NCBI GenBank assembly: GCA_947628135.1
Contig: CANQYT010000004.1
Coordinates: 28,566-92,565 of the forward strand
Source: an uncultured Clostridia bacterium
Lineage (GTDB): Bacteria > Bacillota > Clostridia > Christensenellales > CAG-314
Length of the DNA: 64,000 nt
Direction: 5' to 3'
Part shown: piece after piece, positions 39,140-62,155 of the stretch
Layout of the letters: each line of letters starts with the position of its first letter
How positions within the stretch are numbered: the stretch's first letter is position 1
The notes under the pieces: generated by a model
Databases searched by the model: none
Told to the model about the DNA's origin: nothing
What the model saw: only the letters and a program-made list of their open reading frames with translations
Position numbers and translations under genes: made by a program

Positions 39140-40440
39140 TATTGAATTTGTTGTGCGACTTTACGTCGGTTATGAGGACCGTCGGCTACGTGTTGCTTGC
39201 TTTCGTGGTGTTGATGATTATGGTGTTGATACACGAAACGGGACACTACACCGCGGGCAAAATATTGGGTTTCCAAATCAACGAATTTGCGGTTGGTATG
39301 GGACCGAAAATATTCTCCACAAAGAAAAAGAACGGCGAAATCTTTTCGCTTAGACTGCTTCCGCTTGGAGGATATTGCGCGTTCGAAGGGGAAGGGGAGG
39401 ACGGCAACGCCAATCCGAGGGCGTTCAACTCGCAAAAACCTTGGAAACGTCTCATCGTGCTTTTTTCCGGCGCGCTGTTCAATTTCATATCGGCAATTCT
39501 TATCGCGGTAATCGTCTTTGCGGCATACGGCGAAACGGTCGTTCAGATAAATAACGTGTATTCCTACGCGCCGTCCGCCAACAGACAACTGCAAAGCGAC
39601 GACATCATATACAAGGTGAACGGCAAAAGGGTGTATATGTTGGACAGTCTGGAAAGGTATCTGTCCGACGAGCCTATGAGCATTGTCGTGCTTCGTCCGC
39701 ACGAGGAAAACGGCAAGACCGTTTACTCGGAAGAAACGTTGGAAAACGTCGTGCGCAAAAAGTACTACGTCGTTGCGCTTACAAAGGTGGACAGTTCGCT
39801 GAATTTGGAATCGAACGGCAGACTGTTAAGCAAAAACGACTCTGTTTACGCGATAAACGGCGAAGTGCTGGACGAACAGGGCGAATTCGACAGACTGTTC
39901 CGCGAGTCCGTCGGTACTATGAATTTGACCGTCACCGACGGACAAAATTTCTACGAATACAGCGTGGACAAGAGCGCGTTCGAAACCGCCGCGCTGATAG
40001 CGAAAGAGCAAAGTTACACGGGCATCGGTATGTCGGTGCAGTACGTCAAATATAAGTTCGGTTTCGGCGAGGTGCTGTTACGCGTTGTGCCGTATTGCTT
40101 CGAAGTGGGTATGCTGGTGCTGCGTACTCTCGGAGGTTTGCTGACTGGCGTTGTGGGTGTAGAACAGATAGGCGGTCCTATCTCTACCATAGCGATGACG
40201 AGCGAAATTGTCTCTACGGGGTTCGGCAACGTTCTTATGCTGATGGTGTTGATCTCCGTCAATCTCGGAGTGTTCAACTTGCTTCCCGTACCCGCTTTGG
40301 ACGGGTGTCAGATGGTGTTTGTCATCATCGAGTGGATCGCGCGCCGTCCGATAAACAGAAAGGTGCAAGGGTGGATCAACGGAATAGGCTTTGTTGTGCT
40401 AATTGTGTTGATGCTTCTTGTGGATATACTTAAACTATGA
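39136..40440 (+). CDS. rseP: RIP metalloprotease RseP (site-2 protease)
   Basis: HETGHY zinc motif, PDZ region, C-terminal NLLPVPALDG motif. Confidence 0.93.
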   Translation: MILNLLCDFTSVMRTVGYVLLAFVVLMIMVLIHETGHYTAGKILGFQINEFAVGMGPKIFSTKKKNGEIFSLRLLPLGGYCAFEGEGEDGNANPRAFNSQKPWKRLIVLFSGALFNFISAILIAVIVFAAYGETVVQINNVYSYAPSANRQLQSDDIIYKVNGKRVYMLDSLERYLSDEPMSIVVLRPHEENGKTVYSEETLENVVRKKYYVVALTKVDSSLNLESNGRLLSKNDSVYAINGEVLDEQGEFDRLFRESVGTMNLTVTDGQNFYEYSVDKSAFETAALIAKEQSYTGIGMSVQYVKYKFGFGEVLLRVVPYCFEVGMLVLRTLGGLLTGVVGVEQIGGPISTIAMTSEIVSTGFGNVLMLMVLISVNLGVFNLLPVPALDGCQMVFVIIEWIARRPINRKVQGWINGIGFVVLIVLMLLVDILKL

Positions 40441-41480
40441 GAAATCCTACGAAAAAAATTTACGTTCGCAACGTCCCGATAGGCGGAGACAGTCCGATAG
40501 CGATACAGTCTATGACCAACGTTTCCGTCACGGACGTTGAGGCTACTCTCGCGCAGATAGAGCAGTGCGCGGCAAACGGCTGCGACATAATGCGTATCGC
40601 AGTGCCCAACGCAGAATGCGCAAAAGCGTTTGCCGAGGTGCGCCGTCGGACAAACGTCCCGCTTGTTGCGGATATTCACTTCGACTATCGGCTCGCTCTG
40701 GCGGCGATAGAGGCGGGTGCGGACAAAATTCGTATCAATCCCGGCAATATGCCCTTGCCTCAATTGGACAAAGTGACAGACTGCGCCAAAGCAAACGGTA
40801 TTCCCATACGAATTGGAGTAAACGCGGGTTCTGCCGACAGACGTGCTATGAGCGTGGAGGGCAGAGTAAAGGCTATGTGCGACAGCCTTGCCAAGTACGT
40901 CGAACGCTTTGAGGAAAGAGGTTTTTACGACATTGTGCTTTCGGTGAAAAGCACCGACGTGCGCGAGACGGTCGCGGCAAACAGACTTGCGGCAAAATTG
41001 GGTTATCCCATTCACATGGGTGTGACGGAAGCGGGGTTGCTGCGCCAAGGGCTGGTAAAAAACTCCATTGCGATAGGCAGTTTGCTTTTGGAAGGAATAG
41101 GCGACACCGTGCGCGTTTCGCTTACTTCCGACCCCGTTGACGAAGTGCGCGCCGCAAAGGATATGCTGGTTTCTCTCGGCTTGAAAAAGGGCGTAACTTT
41201 TGTGTCCTGTCCTAAGTGCGGACGTTGTTCCATCGACCTCGAAAACGTTGCCGCTCAAATATACGACTATGTAAAAGATATAGACAAAAACATCAAAATT
41301 GCGGTAATGGGGTGCGAAGTCAACGGACCGGGAGAGTGTAGCGACGCCGATTTGGGAATGGCGGGCGCAAACGGCAAATACGTTTTCTTCAAGCACGGAA
41401 AGCGTTACAAAACGGTAAGCGCGCAAGACGCCGCGGAACAATTCAAAAGGGAAATAGATTTGATTACAAATGTTGATTGA
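40437..41480 (+). CDS. ispG: 4-hydroxy-3-methylbut-2-enyl diphosphate synthase
   Basis: IAIQSMTNV ... RINPGN ... SCPKCGRC ... MGCEVNGPGE. Confidence 0.97.
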   Translation: MRNPTKKIYVRNVPIGGDSPIAIQSMTNVSVTDVEATLAQIEQCAANGCDIMRIAVPNAECAKAFAEVRRRTNVPLVADIHFDYRLALAAIEAGADKIRINPGNMPLPQLDKVTDCAKANGIPIRIGVNAGSADRRAMSVEGRVKAMCDSLAKYVERFEERGFYDIVLSVKSTDVRETVAANRLAAKLGYPIHMGVTEAGLLRQGLVKNSIAIGSLLLEGIGDTVRVSLTSDPVDEVRAAKDMLVSLGLKKGVTFVSCPKCGRCSIDLENVAAQIYDYVKDIDKNIKIAVMGCEVNGPGECSDADLGMAGANGKYVFFKHGKRYKTVSAQDAAEQFKREIDLITNVD

Positions 41481-43107
41481 ACGGTTACATCTTAATTTTC
41501 CGTCGCTGACGGATCTGCGTATGCGTGAAATTCGCGTTGACAAAAGACAACGCAAAGTTTTCTGTACGCTGTCTTACCCTCGCGACGGCTTGGACGGTTC
41601 TGCGAAAGCGCAGATAACCGACTTTATCCGCGCAAACGTGCCGAACGGTTACTTCTGTTCCGTTCGCTTTGTTGACGATTCCTTTACGGTAAATTCCTTT
41701 CAGCGCAATCTCGCCGACTTCATCAAGGAACGCTATCCGATTTATTCCGACGTGAGCAAGTCGGATATCGAAGTACATATCGGAGACAAAACCGTTTCCG
41801 CAGTGTTGTCTGTCAGCCCCGTAACGAAAAAAAATATGGAGTTGTCGAATTTCTGTCAGACTCTTGCCGAACGCTACGCCGACTACACAAGTTATTCCGT
41901 TTCTTTCTCTTTGCGCGTTGACGAAACTTCGCGCGCGTCGATCGTCGGCGAACAGGAAAAACTCGTTCACCTTGCGATAAACAGGGAATTGCTCAAACCC
42001 GAACGCCACTTCAACATCAGCGAACAACGGCGTATTTTCGGTAAAAACGTTACGTCGTTGCCGATGTACATTTCCGACATTCGCAAACCTATGGACAGTT
42101 GTATCGTTTGCGGAGTCGTTTCCTCAAAAAAATGCCGTCAGGCAAAAAGCAATCCGCTGTTGTACGTTTGTTCCTTCGATTTGACGGACGCGACGGATTC
42201 CGTACTGCCTTGCGTTTTGTTTACGCGCCTGCAAATTACCGACGTGGAAACCATCATCAGCGAAACGGGGAGAGGCGAGGCGGAAGCACGGACGCTTTCG
42301 GAAAAGCGCGCCTTTGCCAACGACAAATTGCTCAAAGAAATAATGTGGCTGTCCGACGGTATGTCCGTGGTGGCGCACGGCAAACTGACGTACGGGCAAA
42401 ACGGTCGTTTGGAATTGCACGTTTACGACCTGTGCGCTTGCCGAATTGCACCTATATCCCCGGATAAGGAATTTACCCGCGCCGTTGCGGAAGAATACGT
42501 TTTGGTCAAACCGCAGGAGTGTACGGAATACCGTCAGATAGATTTTGTCCAGAAAAGCGACGGTATATCTCTGCTTACGGGCAAAACGGACGTGGTGCTG
42601 CACGTCAACGCAACTTCGCTCGGCAACGTCATAGACGACAAACTGATAGCGCTTTGCGCCGTCAAACTTGTGGACGGTCACACGACGGAAAGATTTTTTA
42701 CGTATATCAATCCCGAAAAGGAAGTAACGGACGAGGGCTTGCTTACTAAGTGCGGTCTGTCTCAATCGAAACTTATTTTCTATCCGACGCTGACGGAAAT
42801 CATTTCCGATTTGTACAAGTTTACATACGGCTGTCGGCTTGTGGGAACGGATCTGCAACGTATCGTGCCGTTGCTTGATTACTACGCCGCCCCGATGAAT
42901 TACCGTTTCGGCAATGAAACGCTGTCGCAAACGGAACTTCTGTCCGAATTGTTGGAAAACAGTACTCTGGATTTGCACGCGAACGTCTCCGAAACGGAAG
43001 ATCTCATCAAAAAGTGCAAGATAAAATGTACAAATTACGCGTTTTGTTTCAATTCAGCTACGGCAGTGGCGCAGTGTATCAGCACTTTGGCGTTCAATTC
43101 CAAGTAA
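41470..43107 (+). CDS. PolC-derived protein: PolC N-terminal domain, OB fold and exonuclease-like domain with substituted catalytic residues; no PHP or polymerase
   Basis: 545 aa at the syntenic polC position (ispG - X - rimP-nusA). Residues 373-470 align by eye to the PolC/DnaQ exonuclease, but DxE is HVN and HNxxFD is GTDLQR. Confidence 0.7.
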   Translation: MLIERLHLNFPSLTDLRMREIRVDKRQRKVFCTLSYPRDGLDGSAKAQITDFIRANVPNGYFCSVRFVDDSFTVNSFQRNLADFIKERYPIYSDVSKSDIEVHIGDKTVSAVLSVSPVTKKNMELSNFCQTLAERYADYTSYSVSFSLRVDETSRASIVGEQEKLVHLAINRELLKPERHFNISEQRRIFGKNVTSLPMYISDIRKPMDSCIVCGVVSSKKCRQAKSNPLLYVCSFDLTDATDSVLPCVLFTRLQITDVETIISETGRGEAEARTLSEKRAFANDKLLKEIMWLSDGMSVVAHGKLTYGQNGRLELHVYDLCACRIAPISPDKEFTRAVAEEYVLVKPQECTEYRQIDFVQKSDGISLLTGKTDVVLHVNATSLGNVIDDKLIALCAVKLVDGHTTERFFTYINPEKEVTDEGLLTKCGLSQSKLIFYPTLTEIISDLYKFTYGCRLVGTDLQRIVPLLDYYAAPMNYRFGNETLSQTELLSELLENSTLDLHANVSETEDLIKKCKIKCTNYAFCFNSATAVAQCISTLAFNSK

Positions 43108-43132
43108 AATTTATATAATTTTATATAAACAG

Positions 43133-43161
43133 TTGTCAAAGAGGCGTTTGTGTGGTATAAT
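43133..43161 (+). promoter_or_regulatory. sigma-A-type promoter for rimP-nusA-infB
   Basis: TTGTCA at 43133-43138, 17-nt spacer, TGgTATAAT (43156-43161). The 140-nt leader contains a perfect 10-bp hairpin gagagtggag/ctccactctc. Confidence 0.55.
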
Positions 43162-43301
43162 CTATACGACAAATCGGGTAGGTTTGTCTGTCGTTTGCGC
43201 AAGTGAGTTGCACGGCGCAATCGAGACTTTTCGCCAAATAAGGGTTTACTTGGTGAGAGTGGAGGCTATTCTCCACTCTCAAATTGATGTAAGGAGGAAT
43301 T

Positions 43302-43757
43302 ATGGGCAAGATTTCCGACGAAGTATTTCGGTTGGTTGAGCCTATCGCCGAAAGTTTCGGTTTGGAGGTTGTGGAGGTACTCTACGAAAAAAAGTACGAC
43401 GGAATGAATCTCACCGTTGTGATAGACAAAGAGGGCGGAGTTACGATAGACGATTGCGAAAAATTGCATCGCGCCATAGACGCTCCGTTGGACGAACTCG
43501 ACCCCATTGACTGCGCGTACATACTCAACGTTTCGTCGCCGGGAATAGACCGCCCGCTCAAAACCGAACGCGACTACCGTCGCAATCTCGGCAAAAAAAT
43601 TTCCGTAAAACTTTACAAACCGCTCGACGGTAAAAAGAGTTACGAGGGCGTACTTGAAAACTACGACGAAACGTCATTTACCTTGCAAGTAAAAGGCGGC
43701 ACAATCAAATTTGAAAAAAAAGATACGGCAAAAGTTGAGCCGATAATCGAATTTTAG
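43302..43757 (+). CDS. rimP: ribosome maturation factor RimP
   Basis: RimP pattern (VEPIAESFGLEVVEV ... SSPGIDRPL). A GGAGG RBS precedes the start. Confidence 0.93.
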   Translation: MGKISDEVFRLVEPIAESFGLEVVEVLYEKKYDGMNLTVVIDKEGGVTIDDCEKLHRAIDAPLDELDPIDCAYILNVSSPGIDRPLKTERDYRRNLGKKISVKLYKPLDGKKSYEGVLENYDETSFTLQVKGGTIKFEKKDTAKVEPIIEF

Positions 43758-43768
43758 GAGGGACAGTA

Positions 43769-44854
43769 ATGATCAGCAAAGAATTTTTCCTGGCTCTGGA
43801 CGAGTTGGAAGAAACAAAGGGTATCAGCAAGGAAAAAGTTATCGAATCCTTGGAGACGGCACTGACTATCGCCTGTAAAAAACATTACGGCGAGGCGTCC
43901 AACACCGTTGTGAAAATCAATCCCGAAAAAAATACTATCAGAGTGTACACTTCCAAAACCGTTGTGGAAACGGTGGAAACTCCCGAAAAGGAAATCTCTT
44001 TGGAGGACGCTCAACTGATAAAGAAGAGTTACAAAGTCGGCGACGAGGTGCTGACGGAAATCAATCCGCGCGATTTCAGCCGTATCGCCACGCAAAACGC
44101 CGTTCAGGTAATAAAAAACAGTTTGCATCAAGCGGAAAAAGACGTTACGTTCAGTCAATTTTCCGATAAAGAAAACGAACTGCTTATCGGTATCGTCTCT
44201 CGCGTAAAGGACGACGGCACTATCTACGTCGAAATCGGCAAAAACCAGATGGAGGGCGTGCTTACCGTGCAGGAGCAGATCCCCGGAGAGAAATTCCACG
44301 CGGGCGATCGCATAAAAGTGCTTGTAAAGCGCGTGAGAGACAGCGTCGGCGGAACGCAAGTTATGCTGTCGCGCGCAAGTTATATGTTCATCAAGCGGCT
44401 GTTCGAAAACGAAGTGCCCGAAATACGCGCGGATATCGTTCAGATAAAGAGCATTGTGCGCGAGGCGGGTTTCCGTACCAAGATGGCGGTGTATTCCACC
44501 GACCCCGAAATAGACGCCGTCGGCGCTTGCGTGGGCAACAAGGGTATCCGCGTAAACGCAATCGTATCCGAAATAGGCGGAGAAAAAATCGACATCATTC
44601 CGTGGAGCAGCGATATTCTCGACTATATCGCGAGAGCGCTGTCCCCCGCAAAAGTGCTTATCGTGCAAGCCGATGAGGAAACGAAAGAGGCAAAAGTGGT
44701 CGTTCCCGATGAAAAACTGTCCCTTGCCATAGGCAGAGAAGGACAAAACGCACGGCTTGCGGCTCGTCTTACGGGTTGGAAGATAGACGTAAAATCTTAT
44801 TCGGCGGCTCTTGCAAGCGGAATGTTCGACGGCGACGACGCCGAAGGAGAATAA
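43769..44854 (+). CDS. nusA: transcription termination/antitermination factor NusA
   Basis: N-terminal domain, S1 domain and two KH domains ([37 protein letters not shown]). Confidence 0.98.
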
Positions 44855-54361: not shown

Positions 54362-54387
54362 TTACCAAACGTATTTTGGAGGCAGCA

Positions 54388-55848
54388 ATGAACAACATTT
54401 ATCAGGACATCGCGGAGCGCACCAACGGCGACGTATATATAGGCGTTGTCGGACCGGTGCGCAGCGGCAAATCGACGTTTGTTACAAACTTTATGACAAA
54501 ACTGATTTTGCCGAACATAGCGGATAAAAACGAGCGTAAGCGCGCCAAGGACGAACTTCCTCAATCCGCGGACGGCAAGATGATTATGACGACGCAACCC
54601 AAATTCGTTCCCAATGCCGCGGTGAAACTGTCGCTCGGCGACAAGGCTACGGCAAACGTGCGCTTGATAGATTGCGTGGGGTATCTCGTGGAGGGCGCGG
54701 AGGGGCATCTCGACGGCGAAAAAATGCGCCTCGTCAACACTCCGTGGTCTGCCGATCCCATTCCGTTTGAAAAGGCGGCGGAAATAGGCACGCAAAAAGT
54801 GGCAACGGAACACTCAACGATAGCGGTGGTCGTCACGACGGACGGCAGTATAGGGGAAATTCCCCGTCAAAACTACATCGGCGCGGAAGAAAGAGCCGTT
54901 CGGGAACTGAAACAGTCGGGCAAGCCCTTTGTCGTGGTACTCAATTGCACAGATCCTCGCAGCGACTCCGCCAAGGAACTTTCGCTTGCTCTGCGGGAAA
55001 AGTACGGAGTGGAAGTGATTCCTCTCAACGTTCTGTCCGCAAGCGGCGGCGAGTTGGAAGAAGTGTTGCAGTGTATTTTGAAAGAGTTCCCCGTAAGGCG
55101 CATAGCGTTGAATCTGCCTATGTGGATGCGCGCGCTGGAAAAGGACAACAAATTTATCGCGGAATTGTTGGACCGCGTAAAAAAGTGCTGCGACGATATC
55201 CGCAAGATGAAGGACTCGGACAAACTTATCGCCGCGTTCGACGGGTGCGATTTTGCCGAATCAATCGCCGCGACGGATCTAAATATGGGCAGCGGTGCGG
55301 CAAACTATTCTTTCACGCCCAAGTCCGACTTGTTTTTCCGCGTGCTTTCCGACGAGGCGCAGATGGAAATTACGGACGAATTTTCGCTGATGAGTTTCGT
55401 TACGGGCGCGGCATACGCCAAGCGACGCTTCGAAGCGATGAAAGACGCTCTGGAACAATCTGATACGAACGGCTATGGGATAGTGTACCCGAAAACGGAC
55501 AATATGACTCTCGACGAACCGCAAATGGTAAAGCAGGGCAACGTCTACGGTGTAAAACTCAAAGCGACTTGCCCGAGTTACCACATTATTCGCGTGGACG
55601 TCAACACGGAAGTGAGCCCGATGGTGGGAACGGAACAGCAAAGCCGTTACCTGCTTGACGAGTACAAACAAAACCCCGACGCTATCTGGAACACAAATAT
55701 GTTCGGAAAGACGATGGCGGACCTTGCCAAGGAGGGGCTCGAAGGCAAATGCAACGCTATGCCTGCCGAAATCAAGCAAAAACTGACCCGAACGGTAAGC
55801 AAGATCGTCAACGAAAATCGCGGCGGATTGTTCTGTCTGATTTTGTGA
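54388..55848 (+). CDS. spoIVA: stage IV sporulation protein A
   Basis: IYQDIAERTNGDVYIGVVGPVRSGKSTFV Walker A N-terminus and full-length (about 490 aa) SpoIVA colinearity. A GGAGG RBS precedes the start. Confidence 0.96.
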   Translation: MNNIYQDIAERTNGDVYIGVVGPVRSGKSTFVTNFMTKLILPNIADKNERKRAKDELPQSADGKMIMTTQPKFVPNAAVKLSLGDKATANVRLIDCVGYLVEGAEGHLDGEKMRLVNTPWSADPIPFEKAAEIGTQKVATEHSTIAVVVTTDGSIGEIPRQNYIGAEERAVRELKQSGKPFVVVLNCTDPRSDSAKELSLALREKYGVEVIPLNVLSASGGELEEVLQCILKEFPVRRIALNLPMWMRALEKDNKFIAELLDRVKKCCDDIRKMKDSDKLIAAFDGCDFAESIAATDLNMGSGAANYSFTPKSDLFFRVLSDEAQMEITDEFSLMSFVTGAAYAKRRFEAMKDALEQSDTNGYGIVYPKTDNMTLDEPQMVKQGNVYGVKLKATCPSYHIIRVDVNTEVSPMVGTEQQSRYLLDEYKQNPDAIWNTNMFGKTMADLAKEGLEGKCNAMPAEIKQKLTRTVSKIVNENRGGLFCLIL

Positions 55849-57916: not shown

Positions 57917-59521
57917 ATGAAAAAACTGTTGAAGTCTCTGTGCAAACTTTTAGGAAATTTTTGGGTCAGATTGTTGTTTCTTCTCGCCGTTATCGTAGGC
58001 ATATTCGCTTTGAGCGGTGCGTTCAACTCCGCGCAGGATATGGGCAAGCATATTCTCGAAGTGATAACAAGCGGCGACGTTTTGTCCGTTTTTCTGGTTG
58101 CGGCGGTGTCGCTGATAGTTGCCGACGTGGCTATCAGGGTGGGCAGAACGCTGGAAGAAACTCTCAAAATAGAGGACGACCACCACAAAATAGTGTGCAA
58201 GTACAGCAAGCACGAACGTCCCGTCATTGTAAACGGCGTCCCGGAAAAGGTCACGGACAACCTCTACAAGCCCAACGGCAGTTTTATGTATATTACGCAG
58301 GTGGCTGATACTTCCGCGCATATTCGCAATCCGGAAAAAAATCACACGGCGGAGTACCGCTTGCGCAATCAGGACATAAAGGCGTATCGCGGCGGCGTGC
58401 TGTATTTGCCCAGCGTCAACGTGTTCGCCAACGTTTGCGGCACGCAGGTAAAGTTTGACGACGTCAACGCGCGCGTCGAGCCGCCTCGTTTCGTAAGGGA
58501 AAATTCTCTCGCGCTGATGGAGGCGCACAAGGGCAGTTCCTACAAAAACAGCGTCACAATTCGTCTCAACGACGTTGACTACCGAAACGGCGTATTCACG
58601 TTGAAAACGGGGCGCAGTCAGTACTTCGATATGCTTATCACCAATCGCTGTATGGATTACAGACTGCACGATCTTACCACCGTCCGTCAGGTTTACGAAA
58701 GCGGCGACACCGTTCAGCCCTTGTCCAAAACCAAAATGGGCAATCAAATCGGTATCAACGGGTTGGTGTTCACCTGCGACGGATATTTGCTTGTGGAAAA
58801 ACGCGGTTACAGCAAAACCACTTGGAAGAATAAATTCGCTCAGCCCATTTCTCTTGCAATGAAGCGGGATAGCGTTCCTCTGCGCGAGGACGGCACGATA
58901 GACCCCGACGGCGCGCAAAGCGTATTCAAAAAGATAGTGATGGGGACGTTGAGCAACAACTTCGGTCTCACGGACAAAGAGGTGGAGTCGTTCGACGTCA
59001 CGAAAAACCTGTTCGGTCTGGCGCGCGACCTTTTGGAGGGCGGCAAGCCCAACTTGTATTTCTACGTCACGGTAAAAATGACCGCCAAGCAGTTTGACGA
59101 ATTTCTTCGGGAAAAATTCCGTTCCGCGTCCGAACGCGCGCAGCGTATGGACGAAATGAACCGCGAGCAGTACGAAAGCGCACTTGCCGAAGAAAAGCGC
59201 AATGGGGTTTGTTATCCCGAGATTTTCGGGCAAAAATTGGACAGCGATTACTATCTTATCAAGTACGACGATTTTCGCGTAAACTACAACTACGAACTCA
59301 GCGTAAAAGCGAGAAAGATACTTCGCATAAAACGCAAGTACTATCCGCGCGTAAGCAGAGCCGCTCAACACCGCGAGGGAGTCGATTTCAAGTTCCGCAA
59401 GGCATTCAACGCAAGTCTGAAACGCGAGTGCGGCGAAGCGCTGTTGGCGTGCCTGTACTATGCGGAGTTGTGCCGCGACCGTCTCAGCGCCGAACAAAAG
59501 AGAATAGCCGACAGTTTGTGA
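57917..59521 (+). CDS. hypothetical membrane-anchored protein (N-terminal 2-TM hairpin plus a roughly 440-aa soluble region)
   Basis: Long ORF with normal codon usage and two clear hydrophobic helices (residues about 15-35 and 55-75). I recognise no family signature. Confidence 0.8.
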   Translation: MKKLLKSLCKLLGNFWVRLLFLLAVIVGIFALSGAFNSAQDMGKHILEVITSGDVLSVFLVAAVSLIVADVAIRVGRTLEETLKIEDDHHKIVCKYSKHERPVIVNGVPEKVTDNLYKPNGSFMYITQVADTSAHIRNPEKNHTAEYRLRNQDIKAYRGGVLYLPSVNVFANVCGTQVKFDDVNARVEPPRFVRENSLALMEAHKGSSYKNSVTIRLNDVDYRNGVFTLKTGRSQYFDMLITNRCMDYRLHDLTTVRQVYESGDTVQPLSKTKMGNQIGINGLVFTCDGYLLVEKRGYSKTTWKNKFAQPISLAMKRDSVPLREDGTIDPDGAQSVFKKIVMGTLSNNFGLTDKEVESFDVTKNLFGLARDLLEGGKPNLYFYVTVKMTAKQFDEFLREKFRSASERAQRMDEMNREQYESALAEEKRNGVCYPEIFGQKLDSDYYLIKYDDFRVNYNYELSVKARKILRIKRKYYPRVSRAAQHREGVDFKFRKAFNASLKRECGEALLACLYYAELCRDRLSAEQKRIADSL

Positions 59522-61599: not shown

Positions 61600-61676
61600 C
61601 GGGGTGTAGCGCAGTTTGGTAGCGCATATGGTTTGGGACCATAGGGTCGCAGGTTCGAATCCTGTCGCCCCGACCA
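61600..61676 (+). tRNA. tRNA-Pro (anticodon TGG)
   Basis: Acceptor cggggtg/cgccccg, anticodon arm tatgg-tttggga-ccata, T arm ggttcgaatcc, encoded CCA. Confidence 0.93.
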
Positions 61677-61696
61677 AACGATTGCTCGCTTAGTAA

Positions 61697-61773
61697 GGGC
61701 CTTTAGCTCAGTTGGTTAGAGCGGTCGGCTCATAACCGATTGGTCCGGGGTTCAAGTCCCTGAAGGCCCACCA
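61697..61773 (+). tRNA. tRNA with CAT anticodon, probably tRNA-Ile2 (lysidine) rather than elongator Met
   Basis: gggcctttagctcagttggttagagc...ctcataa loop. The body resembles Bacillus tRNA-Ile2. It is not initiator-like (no GGG/CCC anticodon stem). CCA is encoded. Confidence 0.85.
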
Positions 61774-61791
61774 AATGCAAAACATCAATCT

Positions 61792-61868
61792 GGCCCGGTA
61801 GTACAGATGGTTAGTACGCCAGCCTGTCACGCTGGAGGTCGAGGGTTCGAGCCCCTTCCGGGTCGCCA
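61792..61868 (+). tRNA. tRNA-Asp (anticodon GTC)
   Basis: ggcccggtag... with anticodon arm ccagc-ctgtcac-gctgg, encoded CCA. Confidence 0.93.
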
Positions 61869-61875
61869 ATGTTTT

Positions 61876-61951
61876 GCTTCGGTAGCTCAGTAGGTAGAGC
61901 AGGGGACTGAAAATCCCCGTGTCGGTGGTTCGATTCCGCCCCGAAGCACCA
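61876..61951 (+). tRNA. tRNA-Phe (anticodon GAA)
   Basis: gcttcggtagctcag... with anticodon arm gggga-ctgaaaa-tcccc, encoded CCA. Confidence 0.93.
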
Positions 61952-61972
61952 CATTGTTGGCAACAAAATAGT

Positions 61973-62049
61973 GCTGGTGTAGCTCAATCAGGCAGAGCAA
62001 TTGATTTGTAATCAATAGGTTGATGGTTCGATTCCGTTCACCAGCTCCA
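61973..62049 (+). tRNA. tRNA-Thr (anticodon TGT)
   Basis: Acceptor gctggtg/caccagc, anticodon arm attga-tttgtaa-tcaat, encoded CCA. Confidence 0.9.
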
Positions 62050-62070
62050 TTTTTTTATAAGATACATTTT

Positions 62071-62155
<85 letters not shown>

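Follow-up and report, generated by a model that had tools for sequence, protein, structure and literature searches.

PolC, as represented by the solved enzymes of E. faecium (9qpc) and G. kaustophilus (3f2b), has an N-terminal region, an OB fold and a DnaQ-type exonuclease (Exo) fold in this order, and its gene occupies a slot upstream of rimP-nusA-infB. Here we describe a gene that sits in the same slot in a 64-kb stretch of DNA from an uncultured Clostridia bacterium of the rabbit gut (contig CANQYT010000004.1; this whole stretch is called the window below and all coordinates without a locus number refer to it), and that encodes a stand-alone protein with the same parts in the same order. 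The OB and Exo domains of PolC are the closest solved relatives of the family to which this window protein belongs. Compared with PolC, the window protein is without the PHP domain, the polymerase core, the HhH and the C-terminal QLSLF clamp motif. Moreover, no PHP domain surrounds its Exo domain, a linker with a clamp-like motif of its own takes the place of the N-terminal PHP segment, and the catalytic site is predicted to be dead.

The epsilon subunit (DnaQ) of E. coli is likewise a stand-alone DEDDh-fold protein of the replisome and has its own beta-clamp-binding motif beside the nuclease domain. It differs in that it has no OB or N-terminal domains, in that its clamp motif follows the nuclease domain and does not precede it as in the window family, and in that it is catalytically active. 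Related organisms have divided PolC at these domain boundaries too, and the Exo-less PolCs that result (Timinskas et al. 2014, PMC3919608) stand in the slot as well; we found them in three loci of relatives (L069, L072 and L085). The outcome there is complementary: the Exo-less enzyme keeps the N-terminal region, OB, PHP and Pol3 parts and deletes Exo (positions 401-595 of the PolC model used below), and the window protein keeps the N-terminal region, OB and Exo. Inactive 3'-5' exonuclease domains are retained in many Pol I orthologues and in PolA2 (PMC12926913), where a DnaQ-like fold was likewise kept under selection after its acidic residues had been lost. Those domains stay within an active polymerase, whereas in the window protein the polymerase is gone. 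Hence the window protein belongs neither to PolC, as it has no polymerase and no PHP domain, nor to the catalytic DEDDh exonucleases, though it is descended from both. We found nothing relevant in the literature on a stand-alone PolC fragment or on the PolC status of Christensenellales-like metagenome-assembled genomes (MAGs), and the searched portions of two surveys of C-family polymerases in complete genomes (PMC3919608 and PMC12926913) make no mention of such proteins.

A PolC-like gene in the polC slot

The open reading frame (ORF) extends from 41470 to 43107 on the + strand, starts with ATG and encodes an intact protein of 545 amino acids. The ORF begins within the last 11 nt of ispG (40437-41480), and this overlap (41470-41480, +), which would couple the translation of the two genes, recurs as overlap or abutment in most of 47 orthologous loci. 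The stop codon is separated by 194 nt from the start of rimP at 43302, and the ORF is the only gene between ispG and rimP. This arrangement had been described in an initial annotation, which was made from the sequence alone, and the ORF coordinates bear it out. Because the N-terminal 17 residues are conserved, the ATG at 41470 is taken as the real start; no strong Shine-Dalgarno sequence is found near it. The gene order is frr-uppS-cdsA-dxr-rseP-ispG-[ORF]-rimP-nusA-ylxR-L7Ae-infB-rbfA-nrnA-truB, in which the ORF closes the uppS-cdsA-dxr-rseP-ispG operon.

The proposal that this is the ancestral slot of polC agrees with what stands there in relatives, for which we fetched 80 metagenome loci with NusA as anchor. 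A full PolC of 1405-1518 residues lies immediately upstream of rimP in L053, L060, L064, L065, L066, L087, L092, L107 and L111, and an Exo-less PolC of 1233-1257 residues occupies exactly the same position in L069:3798-7568, L072:3823-7593 and L085:5665-9363. A further Exo-less gene, in L095:5938-9399, is broken up into several ORFs; this locus comes from a long-read assembly, and sequencing errors may be the cause. In the other relatives the place upstream of rimP is taken by a member of the window family (L062) or by unrelated genes.

A hidden Markov model (HMM) of PolC with 1428 positions was built from nine PolCs of the metagenome loci. On the Exo-less PolCs positions ~401-595 are cleanly missing. 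On the window ORF the model matches at positions 81-336 and 414-571 only, and on every orthologue its matches are likewise confined to ~20-336 and 410-575. The positions of the PHP domain (337-413 and those beyond 575) are unmatched in the ORF, as is the polymerase core (595-1428). The model has no further match, to the polymerase core or to any other part, elsewhere in the window or across ~1.1 Mb of orthologous loci; Pfam also gives no polymerase match in the ORF. Thus, because the matches are collinear and leave out the PHP and polymerase positions, the protein reads as PolC minus PHP and polymerase, as initially annotated, and it is best explained by a truncation of polC in place.

By profile comparison, the OB and Exo domains are specifically PolC-like, which upholds the PolC descent claimed for them. 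Two profiles were prepared, A1 from 40 sequences of the clade with a dead site, to which the window protein belongs, and A2 from 32 sequences of relatives with an active site. Against the PDB, A2 scored 205 bits with the PolC exonuclease domain of T. maritima (2p1j) and 191 bits with E. faecium PolC (9qpc), in which profile positions 154-295 (OB) align to PolC 199-346 and positions 337-500 (Exo) align to PolC 439-603, collinearly. The corresponding scores were 130 bits for DinG, 118 bits for a Cas-associated DnaQ and 107 bits for epsilon. The family profile matches the OB fold of 9qpc (199-346) and also that of 3f2b, and hhalign of this profile with PolC N-termini from the supplement of PMC3919608 gave a probability of 97.4% (E 1e-11) over the OB fold together with the G-K-x-I motif that precedes it. 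The sequence of the window protein alone matched PDB chains with E 0.19 or worse.

The truncated state is not a misassembly, since the junction is present in independent assemblies: unitigs from four runs, which represent three or more samples, lead from the end of the ORF through the intergenic gap into rimP, and one of them shows 0 differences over 40400-44400. These unitigs rule out the deletion or misjoin at 43107 that had been named as a possible source of error. The gene is under strong purifying selection and is not debris. Between species the proportion of nonsynonymous differences (pN) is 0.26 and that of synonymous differences (pS) is 0.75, and this pN is comparable with the values for dxr (0.22) and ispG (0.18); dN/dS between species is saturated at a pS of ~0.75, so that only pN and pS and a comparison of strains are reported. 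In a strain that is ~98% identical, from a run of another study, 20 of the 21 listed differences in the ORF are synonymous when two changes in codon 268 are read together. These values, and the presence of the gene in the slot of 47 species, fit the earlier suggestion of selection rather than decay.

Predicted architecture of the protein

An AlphaFold2 model computed from 40 homologues has a mean predicted local distance difference test score (pLDDT) of 84. From the N-terminus onwards, two tandem alpha/beta subdomains (residues 1-155) are followed by a helix, by an OB barrel (~196-326) that contains a helical hairpin, by a coil of 45-50 residues and by a DnaQ-type alpha/beta domain (373-545). 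Foldseek found E. faecium PolC (9qpc) as the best PDB match of this model (E 6.5e-13, 420 aligned columns), followed by isolated DnaQ, epsilon and PolC exonuclease domains with target-normalised template modelling (TM) scores of ~0.64-0.75 and E values of 1e-5 to 1e-8. The fold comparison proposed in the initial annotation leads to PolC.

The N-terminal region (41470-41934, +) is modelled with a pLDDT of 91.6 when it is folded alone. A Foldseek search of the PDB with this isolated model returned just generic tandem alpha/beta folds, resembling the ring-building motif of PrgH and KH/NusA-like domains, at TM scores of ~0.5, and this resemblance is taken as a generic likeness of fold.

The PolC-type OB fold (42055-42447, +), including the G-K-x-I / P-M-Y-I-x-D motif that precedes it, is matched by the Pfam OB model at residues 213-320 with E 0.0085 in the window protein, besides the profile matches given above. 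A helical hairpin is inserted in it at residues ~255-292 (42232-42345, +), with modelled helices at 259-266 and 270-292. The hairpin is found in the dead-site clade only, where it is highly conserved (D258, N284, D285 and others are invariant), and in the hhalign alignment it is missing from the profile of the active clade. Four cysteines of the OB fold, C211, C214, C234 and C248 (42100-42215), are invariant or nearly so in the dead-site clade, and one alone is conserved in the active clade; they could be a clade-specific metal site.

Loss of the DEDDh residues

The C-terminal domain (residues 373-545; 42586-43104, +) is recognised as a DnaQ/DEDDh fold by Foldseek and by sequence models. The NCBIfam PolC model PRK00448 matches residues 369-459 with its positions 420-508, which belong to the exonuclease part (E 7e-7), and the Pfam model RNase_T (PF00929) matches residues 382-474 with E 0.003 and 18.7 bits, below its threshold of 24 bits. 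The active relatives match RNase_T with E values of 1e-29 to 1e-42, and they match the OB fold as well.

In an alignment of 249 sequences, the active group carries the motifs FDxETTG, HNxxFD and HRAxxDA, and the group of the window protein carries LHVNATG, GxNLxQ[ILV] and FCxDTAxxVARC at the same places. All five catalytic columns are affected. The Exo I Asp (D in 118/118 active sequences) is H378 in the window protein and H in 91/113 clade members; the Exo I Glu (E in 118/118) is N380, with N in 106/113; the Exo II Asp (D in 118/118) is I465, with I, L or V in 95/113; the Exo III His (H in 116/118) is A524, with V, A or T in 76/113; and the Exo III Asp (D in 116/118) is S529, with T or S in 90/113. 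The Exo I pair of Asp and Glu is kept in none of the 116 dead-clade sequences of the tree described below. Judged from these clade-wide replacements, the exonuclease site of the window protein is dead, as had been proposed. The H-V-N reading of Exo I was exact; that of Exo II as G-T-D-L-Q-R was right in substance, with the refinement that the catalytic Asp aligns to I465. The dead domain has invariant residues of its own, PTLTEIISDLYKF and LLNYYAAP.GY.F.N, which are partly common to the active clade (DFYKF, GY.FDN).

Degenerate Exo motifs also occur in two full-length PolCs that stand in the canonical slot, L053:1403-5617 (1405 aa) and L065:4595-9148 (1518 aa), where VAIGVVAYP replaces VVFDVETTG and VIHDP-LEL replaces VAHNASFD, and where the polymerase part scores normally. 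Thus a dead DnaQ-type proofreader is found within intact PolC as well.

A wider family with mostly active members

A word-indexed search retrieved 105 proteins with 39-64% identity to the window protein, nearly all of 543-550 residues and all from metagenomes or MAGs, of which the named ones are called 'hypothetical'. Searching 1.84 billion representatives with A1 gave 213 or more clusters (E<=1e-30; clustered at 50% identity), and among its best 150 matches all are shorter than 600 aa. Distant matches, where a name is given, are named 'exonuclease domain-containing protein' or 'ribonuclease H-like domain-containing protein' and come from a 'Clostridia bacterium'. The A1 and A2 profiles align with each other end to end (hhalign probability 100%, E 4.8e-84, 510 columns), and therefore the dead and active groups form one family with one architecture. 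Members have ~510-560 residues and come from uncultured Clostridia, and most of them have an intact DEDDh site. Pfam and NCBIfam hold no model that spans the whole family.

The 116 dead-site sequences are monophyletic in a neighbour-joining tree, and their sister group (P0121, P0123 and P0124) has a partly degenerate site. The stand-alone architecture thus preceded the loss of catalysis, which took place once, in one subclade, possibly in steps. This modifies the history first proposed for the gene: the stand-alone PolC-derived protein stands, but its architecture is old, is widespread and goes with an active exonuclease outside the one subclade in which catalysis was later lost.

A survey of relatives found orthologues in 47 species genomes, all downstream of ispG in the polC slot and with the identities given above. 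Three of these genomes have extra genes downstream: in L028:11640-20400, and also in L035 and L038, ~8-9 kb of other genes lie between the orthologue and rimP, or rimP is not on the contig. The insertions mean that the slot is not absolutely fixed, and none of the inserted ORFs is PolC-like. The neighbourhood of active members was read in four cases, and in 4/4 the gene follows rseP or ispG. It lies between rseP and rimP in L049-L051, and in L048 it follows ispG and is itself followed by nrdD, where the contig ends. The next gene was considered as the missing polymerase half and was ruled out at this active locus, where that gene is nrdD. For the family member in L062, nusA begins ~180 bp on and no separate rimP ORF is listed.

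Some taxonomic labels among these loci are conspicuous. L021, L023 and L034 belong to Candidatus Fimimonas, which the NCBI taxonomy files under Myxococcaceae, and L015 and L024 are 'Corallococcus sp.' MAGs. The labels look wrong, because the loci show the Firmicute order frr...rseP-ispG-X-rimP-nusA and because the window, which belongs to the same clade, has spoIVA. In addition, L040 and L044 (CAZHUH010000002.1 and CAZHUH010000023.1) are two contigs of one MAG with the same locus, with identical tblastn identity and the same gene spacing, which suggests a strain duplication in the bin.

A conserved motif in the linker

The OB and exonuclease folds are joined by a linker of 52 residues (42448-42585, +) that is predicted as coil, with pLDDT values of ~63-86 by blocks of 10 residues. 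It replaces the N-terminal PHP segment of PolC (77 HMM positions): matches of the PolC HMM break off at position 336, which corresponds to residue 321, and start again with position 414 at residue 374. Within the linker lies the best-conserved linear motif of the family, Y343-x-x-V-x-P348 ... Q356-I-D-F-V360 (42496-42549, +), which is conserved in both clades. None of the 113 dead-clade sequences deviates at Y343, P348 or Q356, and the active clade conserves these residues at 0.92-0.99.

The five residues from Q356 onwards form a pentapeptide that resembles a beta-clamp-binding motif, for which the bacterial, Dalrymple-type consensus is QL[SD]LF, with Q-x-x-[LM]-x-F as a second form. In active members it has the form Q-x-[NDS]-[LMFI]-F (for example QTNLF, QMDLF and QLSLF), with Q in 114/123 and F at position 5 in 92/123, and it fits the consensus of a clamp-binding motif. 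In the dead clade it has the form Q-x-[NS]-F-[VT], and in the window protein it is QIDFV. Binding of the clamp by the linker is inferred from these motifs, and an invariant clamp-binding-like motif suits the earlier guess that the protein might bind the clamp or the replisome. At the C-terminus, where the nine PolCs of the metagenome loci have an NQLSLF-type motif at the end or within 3 residues of it, the window protein has no QLSLF-type motif and ends in ...LAFNSK.

Proposed function and the polymerase complement

Neither polC nor dnaE is present in the 64-kb window or within +/-10 kb of the 47 orthologues, and no long paralogue appears among the best 150 and the best 120 matches of two profile searches. 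The clade is as far from any available PolC as those PolCs are from one another (NusA 45-57%). In a far-reaching reading, the polC of an ancestor would have been cut in situ to its N-terminal region, OB fold and Exo domain; the product would have become an epsilon-like, clamp-tethered proofreading subunit for DnaE1, which would replicate both strands; the window clade would then have turned it into a purely structural subunit; and these genomes would have no PolC at all. We put this reading as a whole at roughly 40%. That the genomes lack a PolC polymerase altogether is a proposition we hold at somewhat below even odds. The only copy in the slot is truncated in place, PolC duplications are rare (~3/945 genomes; PMC3919608), and Clostridia with DnaE1 only are known; these three points and the want of a long paralogue among the best profile matches count for absence. 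Because such Clostridia are known, a full-length polC elsewhere, which the initial annotation had required of a normal Firmicute, need not exist.

In the explanation that we favour, the ancestral stand-alone protein would have been a 3'-5' proofreader acting in trans, analogous to E. coli epsilon, and the active relatives of the window protein do look like a functional analogue of epsilon. It would have been held at the fork by the clamp-binding pentapeptide of the linker and by an OB fold that binds single-stranded DNA (ssDNA). A precedent for proofreading in trans is B. subtilis, where the PolC exonuclease proofreads for DnaE (cited in PMC12926913). In most Clostridia, PolC and DnaE1 each contain an active PHP proofreader (PMC12926913), and the window clade may have given up nuclease chemistry, plausibly because the C-family polymerases of Clostridia can proofread through the PHP domain. 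Dispensable exonuclease chemistry fits the relatives that delete the Exo domain of PolC or let it decay in a full-length PolC. The window-clade protein would have been kept for binding, as a bridge between the beta clamp, template ssDNA and the replicative polymerase, and both the helical OB-fold insertion and the altered motif (Q-x-x-F-V) would have arisen as adaptations to a structural role or to a changed partner interface. For the window protein itself, the role of a non-catalytic, clamp- and ssDNA-binding accessory of the replisome has, on the sequence comparisons, an even chance of being right.

Three observations weigh against this account. First, the motif of the dead clade, QIDFV in the window protein, departs from the clamp consensus at position 5, and therefore this clade may bind the clamp less well or not at all. 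Second, the pentapeptide belongs to a longer conserved stretch (Y..V.P...), which might pack on another domain or on a partner. Third, the PolC homology of the first ~155 residues is weakly supported, and the PolC ancestry of this region is the weakest link. It is favoured by the position of the region in the protein, by its build from two subdomains, by a collinear alignment with the N-terminus of the PolC HMM at a low score (15-26 bits), and by one sub-threshold match of the Pfam model DNA_pol3_a_NII (PF11490; E 4.7e-4) in 1/32 active relatives. When the family profile was aligned by hhalign with one and then with five PolC N-termini, the N-terminal region stayed unaligned and only the OB region aligned. 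The initial annotation had described the first ~330 residues as PolC-like throughout; this holds well for the OB part, and the evidence for residues ~1-155 is weak.

A tentative but serious alternative is a split PolC, in which a PolC polymerase, most likely an Exo-less one with N-terminal region, OB, PHP and Pol3, is encoded elsewhere in the genome; the window protein would then be its missing half, or a partial paralogue of it, and would serve it as an exonuclease-fold subunit. Exo-less PolCs, without exactly the region kept here, occur in Clostridia and Negativicutes (PMC3919608) and stand in the slot of the relatives L069, L072, L085 and L095, and many relatives have no polC beside rimP, so that polC can sit elsewhere. 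These Exo-less PolCs, however, keep an N-terminal region and OB fold of their own, occupy the slot themselves and have no stand-alone gene alongside, and the rarity of PolC duplications and the want of a long paralogue in the two profile searches also count against a split. The base composition of the window points the other way: its leading strand is purine-rich, with G>C in 32/32 2-kb windows and A>T in 26/32, and such an excess is a trait found only in PolC-bearing genomes in PMC4070872, although the rule rests there on two PolC-less Firmicutes only.

We consider it unlikely that the protein acts outside replication. In that case its OB and dead nuclease folds would serve to bind nucleic acid (in ssDNA or RNA binding, in repair or in regulation), and the linker motif would be a contact within the protein or with some other partner. 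Dead nuclease folds are often reused for binding, the gene appears to be co-transcribed with lipid and isoprenoid genes and not with replication genes, and the pentapeptide of the window protein is non-canonical. The position in the operon, however, would simply be inherited from polC, the clamp motif of active relatives, Q-x-[NDS]-L-F, is a textbook one, and both domains are of replicase descent.

It is still less probable, to the point of being a slight chance, that the C-terminal domain remains a nuclease or phosphoesterase that uses other residues. His and Asn can ligate metals, and H378 and N380, which could hold one, are the conserved replacements in their columns. The other three positions, however, are aliphatic or small and variable in the clade, the general base His is lost, and position 378 is F or Y in 12 sequences. 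That the ORF is a decaying polC remnant or an assembly artefact, as its truncated architecture and lost catalytic residues might suggest, is negligibly probable given an intact ORF of constant length in 47 species and in more than 100 protein clusters, the purifying selection, the confident predicted fold and the junction seen in independent assemblies.

Neighbouring features of the locus

The 194-nt gap downstream of the ORF contains a promoter-like site, TTGTCA-17-TATAAT with an extended-10 TG (43133-43161, +), which matches the hexamers at 11/12 positions and is identified by consensus match only. A site so close to consensus suggests that the ORF ends the upstream operon and that rimP opens a new one. 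Between this site and rimP lies a leader of ~140 nt with hairpins, for example at 43168-43188 (leader and site together span 43133-43301); it may be a regulatory leader of the rimP-nusA-infB operon, and it matched no Rfam family at gathering score. A look for expression of the ORF found no RNA run that contains its sequence. Two antisense ORFs, 41485-42027 and 42124-42978 (-), were set aside as by-products of composition, as the signals of homology and selection are all on the + frame.

The window also contains spoIVA, smc, topA and other Firmicute genes. spoIVA is located at 54376-55848, and a few kb downstream of it an ORF of 534 aa (57917-59521, +) has no Pfam match at E<=1e-5. A cluster of six tRNA genes lies at 61600-62155 (+), with Pro-TGG, Met-CAT, Asp-GTC, Phe-GAA, Thr-TGT and Tyr-GTA.

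Implications

The proteins of this family are now annotated as 'hypothetical' or 'exonuclease domain-containing', have no family model and seem to have been missed by the surveys of complete genomes, as far as the searched portions of those surveys extend. The family is a natural dissection of PolC that has persisted over a very long period in a large group of gut bacteria. Its lineages include one with an active exonuclease half and a sub-lineage with a dead fold, beside relatives in which just the polymerase half is left (Exo-less PolC) or in which the exonuclease of a full PolC is dead. Thus these three parts of PolC, the N-terminal region, the OB fold and the Exo fold, must do something on which selection can act apart from polymerisation and even apart from nuclease chemistry. 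If the clade replicates with DnaE1 only, a replicase would have been turned into an accessory subunit, and these gut Firmicutes would be without the target of PolC-directed antibiotics such as ibezapolstat.

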